Source: a virus. Taken from it: 44,326 bases of DNA. The stretch lies in IMG/VR virus record IMGVR_UViG_3300027852_000014, positions 1 through 44,326 of that record, one strand, 5' to 3'. The notes beneath the pieces are model-generated. The model made no database searches. It saw only the letters and a program-made list of their open reading frames with translations, and was not told the origin of the DNA. Shown piece after piece: positions 3,676 to 30,240 of this stretch; the stretch's first letter is position 1; every line of letters starts with the position of its first letter. Both the position numbers and the translations under genes were made by a program.

Positions 3676-3704
3676 TTGACAAGTGTTTAAATAGACATTA
3701 TAGT
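3676..3704 (+). promoter_or_regulatory. Sigma70-type promoter TTGACA-17 nt-TATAGT
   Basis: -35 at 3676-3681, exact 17-nt spacer, -10 at 3699-3704. Predicted TSS is about 3711. Confidence 0.7.
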
Positions 3705-3710
3705 AAGTAT

Positions 3711-3868
3711 GTGGATGTGGCGGAAGCTAGGGCAGGTGCACCTTATATTCTACAGACAGGATCTGGCGTAAGGGGAGACCCCGACTAGGGTGAGATGGTC
3801 TATTTATGCAAGAATGTATTTAGGTCGATGAAACCAAGACAAGTAAAAGCACCCCATCCACACCTTTT
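3711..3868 (+). ncRNA. Candidate structured RNA B (stand-alone sRNA or leader of the lysis genes)
   Basis: Starts at the predicted TSS. The 5' arm TGTGGATG (3710-3717) pairs with CATCCACA (3855-3862) and is followed by CCTTTT. Internal helices and locally high GC are visible, with no credible ORF. Shares boxes with 10998..11119. Confidence 0.5.
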
Positions 3869-3889
3869 AACACATAACAGAGTTTCTGT

Positions 3890-4591
3890 TTGAAAGTTTT
3901 AACTATGTGCATTTTCTGCACTATCTTAATGGGGAATGCAATGACTAATATTACTGGGTTTTCCTACGCGATGTCTTTTATAAAAGAGGCCGAAGGCGAA
4001 TATGTAAATCATCCTAACGACAAAGGTGGTGAGACATGGGGTGGAATTGCCCGCAACATGCATCCTAAGTGGAAAGGATGGGAAGCCGTAGACCTTGCAA
4101 AAGAAAAGAACAAAACTAAATCAAGTTTAAACAAGTCCCTAAGATCTAATAAGATGCTGAAAGTAATGAAGCTTGAATTTTATGAAAAAGAATTTTGGGA
4201 TGAAATAGACGCGCTTCCTTTTAATTATAAAATAAAAGTATTTCTATTTGACTACGCCATCAATAGCGGGCACGAGAATGCGTATAAGGCTCTTCAGCGC
4301 GCGTTAGGCGTAAAGGCTGATGGAATTATAGGCAGCCGTACTATCGGTGCGTACAAAGACCAATATAAGCCCTCTTTACTGTATTCTCTTAAGCAAAAGA
4401 GGGATCAGTTTTACAATGATATTGTGAAAAGCAATCCTTCGCAGGGAGTATTTCTAGATGGATGGCTGAATAGGTCTGACAGCGCTTTATGTTTTGGCAT
4501 GGATTGCGGTATAGAGATTGCAAAGAAAGACACTATACTGAAAAAGGCTTTAGAGCTTGCCGTTTTAATTATTAATAAATTCAAGTCTTGA
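3890..4591 (+). CDS. Endolysin: GH108-type lysozyme domain plus PG_binding_3-like domain
   Basis: EAEGEYVNHPNDKGGETWGGI matches the GH108 EGGY..D..D.GG.T..GI signature. FDYAINSGHENAYKALQRALGVKADGIIGSRT matches the PG-binding repeat. Start is ambiguous (TTG 3890, ATG 3905, 3929 or 3941). Confidence 0.85.
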   Translation: MKVLTMCIFCTILMGNAMTNITGFSYAMSFIKEAEGEYVNHPNDKGGETWGGIARNMHPKWKGWEAVDLAKEKNKTKSSLNKSLRSNKMLKVMKLEFYEKEFWDEIDALPFNYKIKVFLFDYAINSGHENAYKALQRALGVKADGIIGSRTIGAYKDQYKPSLLYSLKQKRDQFYNDIVKSNPSQGVFLDGWLNRSDSALCFGMDCGIEIAKKDTILKKALELAVLIINKFKS

Positions 4592-4616
4592 CAAGGAAGA
4601 CTCAAAGAAATACTAT
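4588..4616 (+). promoter_or_regulatory. Candidate promoter TTGACA-17-TACTAT overlapping the endolysin stop
   Basis: -35 at 4588-4593 within the conserved GTCTTGACAAG; -10 at 4611-4616. Confidence 0.5.
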
Positions 4617-4675
4617 CAAAGTGTTATATACTATGATTTGTTGGAATTTCTAAACTCCCTTATCAGGTTATGGAG

Positions 4676-4700
4676 CCCTCTGTTCTAGCAGAGGGTTTTT
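4676..4700 (+). terminator. Rho-independent terminator
   Basis: CCCTCTG (4676-4682) / CAGAGGG (4689-4695), loop TTCTAG, then TTTTT. Confidence 0.8.
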
Positions 4701-4756
4701 ATTGCATACAAAACTCCAACAATACAAATATAATATGTCACATAAGCTAGTATGTC

Positions 4757-4786
4757 TTGACAAGTTGATTAATTATGTTGCATAAT
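4757..4786 (+). promoter_or_regulatory. Promoter TTGACA-18-CATAAT
   Basis: -35 at 4757-4762 within GTCTTGACAAG (an 11-nt copy of 4585-4595); -10 at 4781-4786. Confidence 0.6.
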
Positions 4787-4810
4787 ATATATGCAAGATC
4801 CCGACGGTAA

Positions 4811-4836
4811 AGCCCTTCTTAATTGAGGGGCTTTTT
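4811..4836 (+). terminator. Rho-independent terminator
   Basis: AGCCC (4811-4815) / GGGCT (4828-4832) followed by a T-run to 4836. Confidence 0.6.
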
Positions 4837-4845
4837 CATACATGA

Positions 4846-4874
4846 TTGACAGTGCATTCATCATTTGTTATAAT
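4846..4874 (+). promoter_or_regulatory. Consensus promoter TTGACA-17-TATAAT for the holin operon
   Basis: -35 at 4846-4851, -10 at 4869-4874. Followed by SD AGGAG (4893-4897) and ATG 4904. Confidence 0.8.
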
Positions 4875-4903
4875 AAACGTCTAATCCAAAACAGGAGTTT
4901 ATT

Positions 4904-10710: not shown

Positions 10711-10878
10711 TTATTCATCAGCTTCAACACTGATCTGCTCTTCATTTATTATGCAGTATCCACCAATTTCTTCTTTATCAGAAGGAGGATGTGCTTCTGC
10801 GCTGTATTCTCTGTCTGTCAAGCAAGTGCAGAGCAAGCACTTCTTATAATCAGGCATGCATTTACTTTCTTTTGCCAT
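10711..10878 (-). CDS. Small Cys-rich protein (55 aa)
   Basis: Hand-translated (MAKESKCMPDYKKCLLCTCLTDREY...). No clear SD. Confidence 0.4.
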   Translation of the reverse strand: MAKESKCMPDYKKCLLCTCLTDREYSAEAHPPSDKEEIGGYCIINEEQISVEADE

Positions 10879-10997: not shown

Positions 10998-11119
10998 TGG
11001 GGCGGTAGAGAATTTCACTCTACACGACAGCCTTCCTAGGAGCGTCCTCTGTTAAACCTTACGGCAACTCGACCACTATCTGCCCTGCTTTTTCGTGCGT
11101 CTTATTCCGCCACGCCCCA
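10998..11119 (-). ncRNA. Candidate structured RNA A (paralogue of RNA B)
   Basis: GC-rich 122-nt island between ORFs. Closing stem TGGGGCG/CGCCCCA. Hairpins GTAGAG-7 nt-CTCTAC and GGCA-14 nt-TGCC. Shares GTGGCGGAA, AGGGCAG, CGTAAGG and CTAGG with 3711..3868 in the same order. Strand is inferred from context. Confidence 0.45.
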
Positions 11120-11124
11120 ATTCT

Positions 11125-11289
11125 TTATATGTATTTCCATGCAAGTATTTCATCATACTCACCACAGCAAAAGTCAAAATCTTGGTAATATCCAACAACT
11201 TTCATGCATTCTCCGTTAAGTAGCTTTTCAACTAAGATCATTCGACACTCTTTCGGATCTTCCTTATTTGCATCTTTCCATTCACTCAT
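11125..11289 (-). CDS. Small protein, DUF551-like by recollection (54 aa)
   Basis: Hand-translated (MSEWKDANKEDPKECRMILVEKLLNG...). ATGA overlap with the HNH stop. SD GGAG. Confidence 0.5.
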   Translation of the reverse strand: MSEWKDANKEDPKECRMILVEKLLNGECMKVVGYYQDFDFCCGEYDEILAWKYI

Positions 11290-20972: not shown

Positions 20973-23150
20973 TTAGTCTCCTTTTCTATAGTAAAAATTA
21001 CCGTCACGTTCTTTTTTAAATGTCCATATCTGCTTGAACTGGACACTAAAGAACCTGTTACTTAATGGCTTCTCACCATTATTATCACACCAAGCCTTGT
21101 AGTCAACGTACAAATCAAATGCTGATCTGCGTTTTGCCTTAAGTGATTCGGCGAAATTCTTAATAGGATCATTAACAGACGTGAAGTCGTCCATAAGCTC
21201 TTTCTGTTCTTCAAGAACAATAAATGATCCTGCTTCTTTCAGCTTTCTGTATCCGTCATACATCCAGTTGAATATCTCGTTTGGCTTCTTAGCAAGCTTA
21301 CGCTCTAGCCCTATCTCTTTGATCTTGTCACCAGTACCAGCGTCACAAGCATCAATATATTTCTCATTGAACTTAACAATACACAACCTCCGAAGGAAAC
21401 CATCTGTCGTATCGTTGCTCAGCATAAAGCTGTTCATGTTCAGAATATGTTTGCACCGAGGCGTGAACTCGATGGCATCTTTACCTTTTTTAGCAGCACT
21501 GATTTTCTCCCCAGACACAAGCTTCTTAAACATGCTGCTGCTCACACTACTTGGAGCCTCTGTCGCGAGATTAAGCATACTGCTCTTAAGACGTAATGGC
21601 TCGAACTCGTTCTTGAACCGATCAGGGTTTACCATAGACACGTTCTTGTCACCGATGGCATCTGATAAGCACTTAGTGAACACAGATTTACCATTAGCCC
21701 CACTGCCGATAAAGTAGAACGCTTTCTCTAGCCTGCAGTCACTAAACAGACAGTACCCTGCAATCTGTTGGAGCAATGAGTACTTGTCATCAGCATCACC
21801 AGCCACGTCATATACGAACCGTTCCCAATCTGTCCGCTCAACACCACAGTCTGGTGTGTACGAGTAGTCGGCCTGGAATGACGACATGTCGCTCTCGTCG
21901 TGTGGCAGGAAGTCACCACTCTCTAGGCACAGTGTCCCATTTTGGAAGACAAATATTTCTTTCTTGTTGAACACGCTGTATGACGGCGTCATTGATTGGA
22001 TAACAGTCACAACGTTTCGTAGCATTGTAGCCGTTACGCTTTCGCTAAGAACGTCATACACATACGCTTCGATGTCGTTTTTACGACGCTCGCGCCAGCA
22101 GCCACATGAATACTCATAGAAACCAACCTGATCCTGATACGATATATTGTGGCTCTTAAGAACCTCAGTCGCTATCTCATGCTGCGTCGGCTTACGATCA
22201 AGGCCTTTTGTGTCGATACCTTTCTGCTTACACATAGATAGGAAGCGGGCCATTATGTCAGGTGCGTACCGTAAGCCTCCTTCATTAATAATATTCTCAG
22301 CATCGATATAATCTTTTACATTCTCTATAATGTGACGCAGGCCATTTTTTTTCTTGAGTCCTTTTAACGACCCATGCTTCATATAGTGCTCGTTGATATC
22401 TTTACAGTCAGGGCTATGCCACACCTCAAAATCTTTATCGATGCAATACTTAATAGCTTTTGCTAGGAATTTCTGCCCTGCCTCGTCATTATCGAACGCA
22501 AGCACGATCTTATCATGTAGCTTCGCCATTGAATATATGTTGTGCCCAGCATACGACTCATAGCCTTCTTGAATAAATGTAAGGGAATCTAGCGTGCCTT
22601 CGCAGAGTACTATTGGCAAAGGATCTGCCTGAGGTGGCTTGAAGCCAAAAGGCACGCTGTTACCCTTGCTGTATAAGTACTTCGGAGTTTGGTTGTTTAC
22701 GGCTCTGCCTATATGACCATGTACTCGTCCGTTCCTCCAGCAAGGAATTATAATTCTATTATTATTGTAGCCTATTTTCAAGAGATTTATCGTCTCATCA
22801 GTAAATCCACGACTACGCAAATATTCACGCCCGCTTTCAGGCATGGACATGTGCCATCTGGCAATGTCGCGCTGCATGCTGTCAGTGTCTTGAGGAGGCT
22901 TAACCTCTTGACCCGTCATCTCTAAATATTGTTTATATGCTTGGCTATTGTCTCCGCCAAAGCGATGCGCGGCAATCAAGGCAATTACATCGCCCCAGTC
23001 ACCTGTTTTGAAATCGACCCATGAATCGTGATCGACCTTTAATGATGTCATATTGGTTGATCCAGGCTCCAATGACGACGTGCGACCATTGACCACCTTT
23101 TTGCCCATAACATCTTTTATATAATGTAAACAACTTATTTTATGTTTCAT
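20973..23150 (-). CDS. Bifunctional DNA primase (Toprim) / SF3 (D5/P4-type) helicase
   Basis: Toprim VLCEGTLDS and AFDNDEAGQKF. P-loop FIGSGANGKSVF. 725 aa. SD GAGGAG. Confidence 0.85.
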   Translation of the reverse strand: MKHKISCLHYIKDVMGKKVVNGRTSSLEPGSTNMTSLKVDHDSWVDFKTGDWGDVIALIAAHRFGGDNSQAYKQYLEMTGQEVKPPQDTDSMQRDIARWHMSMPESGREYLRSRGFTDETINLLKIGYNNNRIIIPCWRNGRVHGHIGRAVNNQTPKYLYSKGNSVPFGFKPPQADPLPIVLCEGTLDSLTFIQEGYESYAGHNIYSMAKLHDKIVLAFDNDEAGQKFLAKAIKYCIDKDFEVWHSPDCKDINEHYMKHGSLKGLKKKNGLRHIIENVKDYIDAENIINEGGLRYAPDIMARFLSMCKQKGIDTKGLDRKPTQHEIATEVLKSHNISYQDQVGFYEYSCGCWRERRKNDIEAYVYDVLSESVTATMLRNVVTVIQSMTPSYSVFNKKEIFVFQNGTLCLESGDFLPHDESDMSSFQADYSYTPDCGVERTDWERFVYDVAGDADDKYSLLQQIAGYCLFSDCRLEKAFYFIGSGANGKSVFTKCLSDAIGDKNVSMVNPDRFKNEFEPLRLKSSMLNLATEAPSSVSSSMFKKLVSGEKISAAKKGKDAIEFTPRCKHILNMNSFMLSNDTTDGFLRRLCIVKFNEKYIDACDAGTGDKIKEIGLERKLAKKPNEIFNWMYDGYRKLKEAGSFIVLEEQKELMDDFTSVNDPIKNFAESLKAKRRSAFDLYVDYKAWCDNNGEKPLSNRFFSVQFKQIWTFKKERDGNFYYRKGD

Positions 23151-23240: not shown

Positions 23241-23538
23241 TGTGGAGCCATCCTCCATTTTGCCTCCACAAAACAGCGTTTTGCCTCCACACTTGCCTCC
23301 ACACTCTCGCTTCGGTCTAGTTTTGTTCACCCAAAAATCTATGTATGTGGAGCGTTATGTGGAGGATGGAGGTATTTTGTGGAGGATCAGTGGAGGCAAA
23401 TGTGGAAGATTAAACCATTGATAAACGGCTATTGTGGAGGCATGGAGCCTTTTTTTAAATTGAGTTATGTTTTATGTAAAAGTAAAAGAAATATATATAC
23501 CCCCACAACGACTTGAGTTTTGCCTCCATGCCTCCACA
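23241..23538. repeat. Iteron array (TGTGGAGG / CCTCCACA) with AT-rich core: putative replication origin or master operator
   Basis: Full 8-mers (at most 1 mismatch), forward at 23241, 23346, 23358, 23378, 23401, 23433; reverse at 23263, 23284, 23296, 23531. Half sites at 23252, 23367, 23391, 23443, 23523. A 15-nt inverted repeat (23433-23447 / 23524-23538) flanks an AT-rich spacer. Confidence 0.65.
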
Positions 23539-28701: not shown

Positions 28702-29774
28702 TGATTTACATTAAAGATAAATTAACTATCGACGCGAGCAAGAAGAAAGTTACGATCGCACGTGATGGTATTTATAAGTATTTAGGTGAAGAAATTGGCA
28801 TTCCAGGTGATATGAATATCTACAACGTAATGCGCTCGACTGAATCGTGCACTACTGTACGTGATAAAATCAATGAGCATGGATGTATCCCAGTAACAAT
28901 CGAGCACCCTAAGAATTTCGTCAATCTTGATGACACTAAGTCTTTCAAGCGCGGCGGCGTAGGAAAGTGCGAACTATCTGTGAAGGATGGATGTAATGTT
29001 GTTGAGGGTGAAATGGTTGGCTTAAGTGCTGACGTTAAAGATTTAATCGACCAAGGGTCAGAGGTCTCTTTAGGATCTCGGGCAGAAATTAGGAAGGTTG
29101 AAAATCCTGAGTATTCATTTATAATGGATGTTACAGATGTAAATCACGTGGCGATTGTTGCTAATGGCCGTTGTGGAACAACTTGTAAAATCAAAGATGC
29201 TGATTTTAAGAAACTAATTATGGAGGAATTAAGCATGGAACTTAAGCAAAAGAATGCTGACTTGCAAGCAGAGAAAGAAGTTTTGGAAGCAAAACTTGCT
29301 GACGCTGAGGCGAAGTTAGAAGAAACTAAATCTGAAGCAGTGGCTGAAGAAGAAGTGATTGTAGAAGCTGAAAAAACTGAAGAAACTGTAGAAGCAACTG
29401 ATGCGGAAACAGAAAAAACAGAAGAAGTGGCGGAAACAGAAGAAGCTAAAGAGGAGTCTGCGGCAAAAGAACAAGAGCTTGTTGATAAAGGAATCGACAT
29501 GGCATTTCAAAAAGGACAGATTGCATTGAAATTTGTAGATGCAGGTCATTTGAAGGCGGCTGATTTAATTGGAAAGAAGCCTTGTGAAGTAATTGACACT
29601 AAACTAAAAGAAATTTTCGGACTGGAAGAAGTATCTGATTCTGATCGCACTGGATTGATTTCACTCGCACTTAAACCACAGGTTAAAGACGGATGGAACA
29701 ACTGGGGCGTAAAGACTGAAGACAAAAAAGCTTCAAAAGAAGGAAAAAGCATTTTAGGGCGGATGTTTAAATAA
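28701..29774 (+). CDS. Scaffolding / prohead core protein (DUF2213-like by recollection)
   Basis: RDGIYKYLGEEIG...IPVTIEHP N-terminal domain, then an E/A/K-rich coiled coil. Lies upstream of the capsid gene. Confidence 0.7.
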   Translation: MIYIKDKLTIDASKKKVTIARDGIYKYLGEEIGIPGDMNIYNVMRSTESCTTVRDKINEHGCIPVTIEHPKNFVNLDDTKSFKRGGVGKCELSVKDGCNVVEGEMVGLSADVKDLIDQGSEVSLGSRAEIRKVENPEYSFIMDVTDVNHVAIVANGRCGTTCKIKDADFKKLIMEELSMELKQKNADLQAEKEVLEAKLADAEAKLEETKSEAVAEEEVIVEAEKTEETVEATDAETEKTEEVAETEEAKEESAAKEQELVDKGIDMAFQKGQIALKFVDAGHLKAADLIGKKPCEVIDTKLKEIFGLEEVSDSDRTGLISLALKPQVKDGWNNWGVKTEDKKASKEGKSILGRMFK

Positions 29775-29805
29775 TAACCAAATATAAAACTAAAAGGACT
29801 GAATT

Positions 29806-30240
29806 ATGGCATTATATGATAGCGCTAACATTCAAGAAATTCTAAACAACGGTGCATATGCTCCATTGACTGGAATCTCTAAACCAATGGTTGAAGCAGT
29901 TGTAGACTTACCAACACCACTTAAAGCTGGTCAAGGTGTAAACATCGATGCTGCTGGAACCGTAACACTTGCAACTGATAACGCAACACACGTTATTTCA
30001 AAATCACACTTAGGACTTACAGATAGCACATATCAAGTAACTGACTTTGCAAAAGCGATCCCTGCGGTTGTTTTGGGCCAAGCTATTATTGATTGTGAAA
30101 TGAAGCCTGCGGAAGTAATCGTTGCTACTGATACAGTAACATTCTCAGCTGGTCAAATCATTAAAGCTGTTGGCGGCGAAGCTCAAACTTTTGTAGCAGA
30201 AGCTGTTGAAGGCAATACTGTACGTATCAAGTTCAAATAA
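29806..30240 (+). CDS. Head-associated structural protein (decoration or capsid accessory)
   Basis: 144 aa between the scaffold and the major capsid gene. Strong SD. Confidence 0.55.
   Translation: MALYDSANIQEILNNGAYAPLTGISKPMVEAVVDLPTPLKAGQGVNIDAAGTVTLATDNATHVISKSHLGLTDSTYQVTDFAKAIPAVVLGQAIIDCEMKPAEVIVATDTVTFSAGQIIKAVGGEAQTFVAEAVEGNTVRIKFK

Follow-up and report, generated by a model that had tools for sequence, protein, structure and literature searches.

On the minus strand of the viral genome IMGVR_UViG_3300027852_000014, analyzed over its whole length of 44,326 nucleotides (nt; hereafter the window), a G+C-rich element of about 122 nt (element B, 10998-11119) is probably the gene of a tRNA-like RNA (tRNA, transfer RNA) that does not decode, that evolved from a class II leucine tRNA (tRNA-Leu) and that belongs to a widespread family of phage RNAs, a reading to which we assign a probability of about 0.72. 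The family is uncatalogued, as it was found neither in Rfam 15 nor in the literature searchable by sequence string and by topic. The element had been singled out in an original prediction, made from the letters of the window alone, together with a plus-strand element at 3711-3868 (element A), and the two had been proposed as copies of a structured-RNA family, or of a protein-binding DNA module, recognizable by four ordered sequence boxes and left unexplained by the list of coding sequences. The sequence, strand and coordinates given there for B were correct, and B does form a G+C-rich island between two open reading frames (ORFs) of the minus strand (11125-11289 and 10711-10878), where the G+C content peaks at 53-56% against a window mean of 38.6%. 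It begins 6 nt past the stop codon of the upstream ORF, and the next ORF lies 120 nt further on the same strand.

Read as RNA, B starts with UGGGGCG-UG-GCG-GAAUAAGA-CGC and is made up of the following parts:

11113-11119, minus strand: 5' strand (UGGGGCG) of the closing stem P1, the counterpart of the acceptor stem in a tRNA; 7/7 bases pair with 10998-11004.
11097-11112, minus strand: the 16-mer UGGCGGAAUAAGACGC, comprising U8, G9, a D-stem of 3 base pairs (bp; GCG/CGC) and the loop GAAUAAGA; matches a tRNA-Leu D-arm.
11024-11096, minus strand: variable middle of 73 nt, which occupies the place of the anticodon arm and the variable arm; contains boxes 2 to 4 and ends in an invariant U (11024), the counterpart of U48.
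11005-11023, minus strand: T-arm-like hairpin with a 6-bp stem (GUAGAG/CUCUAC) and the loop UGAAAUU (11011-11017); 6/6 pairs covary.
10998-11004, minus strand: 3' strand of P1 (CGCCCCA), abutting the T-arm, as placed by the covariance model R1 and the family alignment.

The 6-bp hairpin in the 3' part adjoins the 3' closing strand as the T-arm of a tRNA adjoins its acceptor stem, and the D-loop lacks G18G19. Both the closing stem and the GUAGAG-7 nt-CUCUAC hairpin had been predicted, and both are present and show covariation in the homologues. A further predicted hairpin, CGUG(G)CG/CGCACG, is incompatible with the closing stem, although its inner GCG/CGC fits the family as the D-stem. Box 1 (11105-11113) corresponds to the 5' half of UGGCGGAAUAAGACGC plus the G before it.

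Homologues were collected by scanning viral and metagenome contigs for the D-arm TGGCGGAANNRGACGC followed, after a gap, by the T-loop TGAAATTC. This pattern recovered five true homologues in IMG/VR, in which the stem sequences vary and the pairing of closing stem and hairpin is kept, and 43 loci on metagenome contigs. The 17-mer GTGGCGGAATAAGACGC (a G plus the 16-mer) by itself occurs exactly in 97 IMG/VR stretches, where a rough estimate of chance gives fewer than about 10. Altogether, the pattern scans yielded more than 100 relatives from many different environmental samples, among them 77 distinct members with a clean full architecture and a length of 84 to 206 nt (median, 114). The U before the T-stem, never part of any search pattern, is found in 77/77 of these members, and in the set anchored on the D-arm, where the loop was not forced, the loops follow the consensus UGNAAUU and 71/77 stems are 6 bp long. 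The family is defined by the box 1 D-arm, the invariant U and the T-arm-like hairpin stacked on the closing stem.

Covariation was evaluated in an alignment of 30 sequences with shuffled and slid-partner controls. Standard pairs occupy 99.4% of the cells (with about 14 G-U and three unpaired cells), and compensatory, two-sided changes occur at 13/13 variable pairs, i.e., at all seven pairs of P1 and all six of the hairpin. The covariation score is 0.79, compared with 0.22 for the shuffles (0/500 reach 0.79) and 0.09-0.16 for the slid controls. The covarying homologues that the original prediction had named as a check were hence found for B, and with them its view of B as a functional structured RNA of a family, unexplained by the coding sequences, is borne out. 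The protein-binding DNA module is not, considering that the compensatory changes maintain the pairing of the helices. With the covariance model built from the family alignment (R1), in which B was among the training sequences, B obtains 74.9 bits (E 2.4e-18), and the match spans the entire model. All the family features can also be read directly in the B sequence, which combines a closing stem of at least 7 bp, UGGCGGAAUAAGACGC, the U and an abutting 6-bp hairpin with a UGNAAUU loop with this significant R1 score.

The Rfam scan that had been proposed as a check found no known family: Rfam 15 gave no match in the window or in nine homologue loci, either at the gathering score or at relaxed E values (up to 10 for the window and up to 1 for the homologues). 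The earlier statement that B belongs to no known class holds as far as Rfam goes, but tRNA had been among the classes excluded, and the element is tRNA derived. ARAGORN called 0 genes in the window, none in the homologues, and no transfer-messenger RNA (tmRNA); relaxed settings with introns allowed returned only a poor alternative fold. Searches of A and B by blastn against 50,697 GenBank phages (E up to 10) gave no match, and the commonest stem type used as a query gave a single weak chance match. The window phage has no close relative among these phages (the best match to its terminase has 28% identity). The same genome, of 44.2-44.3 kb, is present in three public assemblies with B and its flanks 100% identical, an identity that carries no information on variation. 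Relatives reached through the helicase (51-62% identity) and the endolysin showed no such element in the stretch captured. In locus L021 (Ga0366841_1015521, 3957-4850), with a helicase 56% identical to that of the window phage, the replication module includes an RNA ligase (PF09414); none was noticed in the window, whose genes were only partly annotated.

Other identities were considered and dropped. Resemblances to the specificity domain of RNase P (AGGGCAG, ACAGAG, GUAAGGG), to the GEMM, ykkC and TPP riboswitches and to self-cleaving ribozymes did not survive inspection of the sequence and the negative Rfam result. No reverse transcriptase was noticed that would go with a retron RNA, and B is not promoter-proximal, as the put RNAs of HK022 are. 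As for tmRNA, ARAGORN was negative and the third stem pair is G-C, A-U, U-A or C-G in most members.

The D-arm of B is identical at 16/16 positions to that of Escherichia coli tRNA-Leu(CAG), except for a 3-nt loop deletion that removes G18G19. B has retained the 7-bp acceptor-type stem, U8, G9, the 3-bp D-stem, G13, A14, A15 and the equivalent of U48, and the T-loop of the family has U first and A fifth, as in the tRNA core; an A15-U48 pair is typical of tRNA-Leu. We infer these core positions (U8, A14, A15-U48, T-loop) from established tRNA structure. Measured against a canonical tRNA, the acceptor stem, U8, A14, purine 15, pyrimidine 48 and the stacked T-arm are all present in B, and the combination of G18G19 with a T-Psi-C-type loop on a 5-bp stem is missing. 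The T-loop reads UGNAAUU instead of UUCRANY and the T-stem has 6 bp instead of 5, with a covarying sixth pair. There is no anticodon arm in B (5-bp stem, 7-nt loop, U33, purine 37), the hypervariable middle standing where class II tRNA-Leu carries it, and an anticodon-like loop was seen in 7/40 family middles against 2.5 expected by chance.

The genomic context of some relatives points the same way. On the 4.6-kb contig Ga0307928_10020179 (425-3938, locus L040), the element is the eighteenth unit within a one-strand array of 17 tRNAs, where it exactly fills the gap between a tRNA-Val and a tRNA-Leu(caa), with spacers of 3-4 nt. This tRNA-Leu(caa) has the D-arm GUGGCGAAACUGGCAAACGC and the T-arm GCAAG-UUCGACU-CUUGC, and the element beside it has GUGGCGGAAUAAGACGC and GCAAGA-UGAAAUU-UCUUGC, with a nearly identical T-stem. 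The model R1 does not detect the three tRNA-Leu genes of this array. At a second locus (L041), a tRNA-Leu lies 20 nt away, and the tRNAs are on the strand of the element in 18/19 tRNA-bearing loci. Considering the D-arm match, these two loci and the agreement in strand, the family descends from a class II tRNA-Leu whose core was kept while its outer corner, where the D-loop and the T-loop meet, was rebuilt and its T-stem lengthened. A divergent second copy at 835-935 of locus L044 combines a GG-containing D-loop with a canonical UUCGACU loop, which suggests that both loops change together.

Such an origin raises the question of whether B is a functionless, decayed tRNA-Leu pseudogene, the relic of a lost phage tRNA cluster, as its clear ancestry, the missing anticodon loop, the lack of any other tRNA in the window phage and the partly decayed look of A would have it. 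We regard this as extremely improbable, for the same altered D-arm and T-loop recur in more than 100 contigs without common neighboring genes, and every variable pair of both helices shows compensatory changes, a purifying selection that a relic would not be under.

Neither is B likely to be a true if aberrant tRNA (one with an intron, for instance, or with an extremely long anticodon arm) that is aminoacylated and takes part in translation. In a minority of copies, the canonical anticodon loop CUCAUAA (CAU) does occur, at the end of an arm lengthened to 12-13 bp (loci L034, L037 and L072 and the second copy of L064, at 1704-1815, which also encodes A-CCA), and an A directly follows the closing stem in 40/77 members. 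On the other hand, an anticodon-like loop is missing from B and from 33/40 of the middles, there is neither G18G19 nor a T-Psi-C sequence, the stems are often longer than 7 bp, and allowing introns gave only the poor ARAGORN fold mentioned above; we therefore hold this explanation to be very unlikely. The CUCAUAA-loop copies may form a functionally different subgroup. The scarcity of anticodon-like loops and the absence of any tRNA call by ARAGORN or Rfam indicate that the family is non-decoding, and since most carriers, including this 44-kb phage, have no ordinary tRNA genes, the role of the RNA is not codon supply. Nor is the family probably a general aminoacyl acceptor, given that CCA is rare and that closing stems extended beyond 7 bp speak against a free NCCA end, and with it against aminoacylation, as a general property of the family.

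The comparison shows a conserved, covarying structure, by its sequence tRNA derived, on the transcribed strand in many unrelated phages. Its members are located within tRNA arrays, downstream of a promoter of their own or, as B is, inside an operon. The orientation of the element matches that of the flanking genes and tRNAs. Promoter-like sites ending 4-9 nt before the stem were found in 17/113 members (15%) against 23/657 control positions (3.5%), and several contigs hold multiple divergent copies. No neighboring protein is conserved, the largest cluster (YopX) being present in 6/77 loci at most and without a fixed position. The lack of conserved neighbors, the promoters and the multiple divergent copies together favor an RNA that acts in trans rather than a cis-regulatory one.

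The position of B itself, close behind an upstream stop codon, ahead of the next ORF on the same strand and without a promoter of its own, would also suit a cis-acting mRNA element, either a riboswitch or leader or an RNase P "punctuation" site at which the polycistronic early transcript is cut. Element A sits in the 5' leader of the endolysin gene (start, 3941), and tRNA-like structures are known substrates of RNase P. We consider a cis-acting role unlikely. The absence of a conserved gene family on either side excludes a classical riboswitch, some members lie in tRNA arrays or have their own promoters, and a cleavage signal alone would not need a rebuilt and strongly conserved corner of D-loop and T-loop.

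Unlike the two arms, the middle of the element, from the D-arm to the invariant U, cannot be aligned across the family; it measures 35-133 nt and contains one to three hairpins. Related phages exchange it by recombination. Through the element and in the sequence upstream of it, locus L042 is the same as L052; from the T-arm on, it agrees fully with L068 over more than 280 nt, and yet its middle is wholly unlike that of L068. The mosaic joints among these three loci (alignment A6) fall within the conserved D-arm and T-arm. The same joints could mark a DNA-level element, i.e., a recombination hotspot or an att-type site that mimics a tRNA gene, tRNA genes being classical targets of integration. 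This is very improbable, considering that in P1 and the T-stem it is the pairing and not the sequence that has been preserved, that the element is co-oriented with flanking genes and tRNAs, and that recombination would be expected wherever such conserved stretches exist, as a side effect.

Just upstream of the element in L052 (1820-1921) there is a second, divergent tandem copy with the D-arm UGGCGUAAUGAAUACGC and the loop UAAAAAU. The inserts of two unrelated members (L094 and L104) have the motif GGGAAGUCCA in common; no other recurrent insert motif was found. The only member that has blocks in common with the middle of B is its nearest relative, locus L123, the blocks being AGAUAGUGGUCGAGU, ACAGAGGACGCU, UAGGAA and GUCGU. 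A possible helix in this region (GGCAG/CUGUC in B, GACAAG/CUUGUC in L123) is based on these two sequences only and competes with an alternative preferred by RNAalifold.

These features of the middle bear directly on the four boxes by which the original prediction had defined the family, with A and B as paralogues sharing them in order within a closing stem. All four boxes are found at the coordinates given for A and B, in that order, and the third (CGUAAGG) has the same offset of 56 from the stem start in both. The colinear chain of k-mers between A and B scores 14, which only 8/3000 dinucleotide shuffles of A reach, but in the genome at large it is not exceptional: among about 4,400 windows, A is tied second to third, and a coding window (29701-29858) outscores it with 17. 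A generic local alignment of A and B scores 23, under the 95th percentile of 26 for the genome windows, and past box 1 the shared diagonal has 18/54 identical positions, where the background is 26% (standard deviation, 6%). A three-box pattern had 0 matches in the IMG/VR viral contigs, and its nine matches in 185,579 genomes were all due to chance, mostly in coding sequence and one of them in an apparent zapA-type gene.

Within the family, boxes 2 to 4 fall in the region that is hypervariable across the 77 members. In L123, the position of box 2 reads AGACAAG, box 3 is absent and box 4 is partial (GUAGG, 4/5 bases). Moreover, a tRNA-type alignment places box 2 in the D-loop of A but in the middle of B, so that the positions are not homologous. 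A family defined by the four boxes has to be abandoned, and we consider it improbable that A and B are paralogues in that sense, even if A has the closing stem followed by UGGCGGAA and a T-like hairpin. Box 1 alone, as a tRNA-type D-arm, is a true family feature.

Element A can be divided as follows:

3676-3704, plus strand: sigma-70-type promoter TTGACA-17-TATAGT (11/12 matches); transcription is predicted to begin at about 3711, where the A stem starts.
3711-3739, plus strand: 5' strand of the closing stem (GUGGAUG), UGGCGGAA, and a D-arm-like GCG...UGC with an enlarged loop containing GGG, as read from the sequence.
3786-3809, plus strand: degenerate T-like hairpin UAGGG-UGAGAUG-GUCUA, then UUUAUGC; the G+C-rich island 3702-3809 ends here.
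3855-3861, plus strand: distal perfect complement CAUCCAC, which pairs with the 5' strand, followed by ACCUUUU.

The 8-mer after the A stem, TGGCGGAA, occurs only three times in the window, and the stem sequence GUGGAUG/CAUCCAC is also found in two family members (L100 and L119). The T-like hairpin is identical to the T-arm of B at 13/22 positions on one diagonal, against 9 at most on the other diagonals tested. The UUUAUGC behind it could form 5/7 pairs with GUGGAUG, wobbles counted, as read from the sequence; the perfect complement sits 52 nt beyond the hairpin, unlike in the family architecture. The z-score of the minimum free energy (MFE) of A is weak (-0.74). The R1 score of A is 10.6 bits (E about 1 for the window as a whole), fifth in rank among noise, and the alignment covers only the stem and UGGCGGAA; the full set of family features is not present in 3711-3861. 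Two A-type patterns found no relatives in IMG/VR, the matches being due to chance or coding. The sharing of the stem with UGGCGGAA, the T-like hairpin and the promoter arrangement of other members makes a distant paralogy plausible, and the earlier view of A and B as two copies can be kept to this extent, though not on the model score. From these sequence features, we consider it fairly probable that A is a diverged or partly decayed paralogue of the B family with its own promoter. Within the 250-nt leader of the endolysin gene that contains A, a weak hairpin (ACAGA-GUU-UCUGU) with a U-rich stretch lies at 3878-3905, between A and the endolysin start; it might end the A transcript or attenuate read-through into the lysis gene.

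In the mechanism that we propose, B would be transcribed together with the leftward early genes, its RNA would fold into an L-shape, and the tRNA-maturation enzymes of the host would release it, with RNase P cutting at U/G and trimming of the 3' end to follow. The product would be a stable, trans-acting tRNA mimic or scaffold. The precise conservation of a corner that is non-canonical suggests a specific partner, and this corner might bind a conserved host partner while excluding the RNA from translation. The constant tRNA chassis would give processing and stability to the variable insert, or would act as a decoy itself, and the insert would be a payload or merely tolerated. Our best guess comprises two versions, a decoy for tRNA-directed host defenses and a carrier of a variable functional module.

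Several observations weigh against B being the gene of such an RNA. The MFE z-score of B is -1.0, a weak value that is no better than that of shuffles, and we found no promoter or terminator belonging to B, no antisense target of its insert above chance in its own genome, and no partner protein or target. Part of the invariance seen in the D-arm and T-loop was imposed by the search patterns. The closing stem is longer than 7 bp by at least 3 bp in 27/77 members, few members encode CCA, and the element of L040 has none although the neighboring tRNAs do. The rebuilt corner could weaken recognition by RNase P, and the R1 score of A is within the noise.

A more specific version would be a natural phage tRNA scaffold, in which a tRNA-Leu chassis with a corner rebuilt against translation carries a payload exchanged by recombination and tuned to a host target or defense; we put this forward tentatively and think it rather doubtful. 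Conceivable payloads are decoys, aptamers and seed sequences. Engineered tRNA scaffolds, in which an RNA is inserted in place of the anticodon arm and the chassis supplies processing and nuclease resistance, are a laboratory design, of which the B family might be a natural counterpart by analogy. If the scaffold interpretation were true, the family would be a new modular class of phage non-coding RNA, and as a decoy or a payload chassis it would offer a new anti-host or anti-defense tool and a ready-made natural RNA-display scaffold. With more than 100 members and helices established by covariation, the family also gives a large comparative handle on the tRNA-like stable RNAs of phages, and it could be added to annotation pipelines, considering that ARAGORN and Rfam 15 miss it.

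To our knowledge, the stable tRNA-like RNAs of phage tRNA clusters have gone for decades without a function, species 1 and 2 of T4 (rnaC and rnaD) being the classic example. Like the family described here, these are small RNAs (about 120-140 nt) without an assigned function and on the same strand, and they are annotated at the end of a phage tRNA cluster, the kind of position in which the L040 element is found. B is not part of a tRNA cluster, and its phage encodes no tRNAs. The T-arm of rnaC is canonical (CCGGG-UUCGAAU-CCCGG), and comparison of rnaC and rnaD with B by eye showed no similarity beyond a generic tRNA-like character. The tRNA-like domain of tmRNA shares with B a tRNA-shaped top half and a long structured insert in place of the lower half, but it has a canonical T-loop, and B has neither a tag reading frame nor the conserved G3-U70. 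YrlA, which is bound by Ro/Rsr, is a non-coding tRNA mimic of bacteria and phages that ends in a Ro-binding stem and has a canonical T-loop. The family is likewise a non-coding tRNA mimic, but its ends form an acceptor-type stem and it has no Rfam match; no Ro homologue was seen among the neighbors in the largest protein clusters, the only ones inspected. The 7/6 division of the acceptor/T helix in the family adds up to 13 bp, the total of tRNA-Sec, and an unusual division in a class II-like molecule is also known from allo-tRNAs, with 8/4 or 9/3 (PMC5389517). Both allo-tRNAs and tRNA-Sec keep a functional anticodon arm and decode, unlike the B family.

Two other intergenic regions of the window were noted. 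Positions 23242-23537, in the region that separates the primase-helicase gene (leftward, 20973-23150) from the late genes (rightward), contain ten copies (six of them exact) of GTGGAGGC in three oppositely oriented groups; window-wide, there are 28 matches with one mismatch against 14 expected. This arrangement resembles an iteron-type origin of replication or a regulatory region. In the stretch that follows the endolysin gene and precedes the next one (4588-4900), three strong sigma-70-type promoters (4588-4616, 4757-4786 and 4846-4874, with 10-12 of 12 matches) alternate with terminator-like hairpins at about 4674-4702 and 4813-4836. These units are candidate small RNAs, the first of them with a predicted RNA of about 80 nt and a good folding score (z, -2.5).

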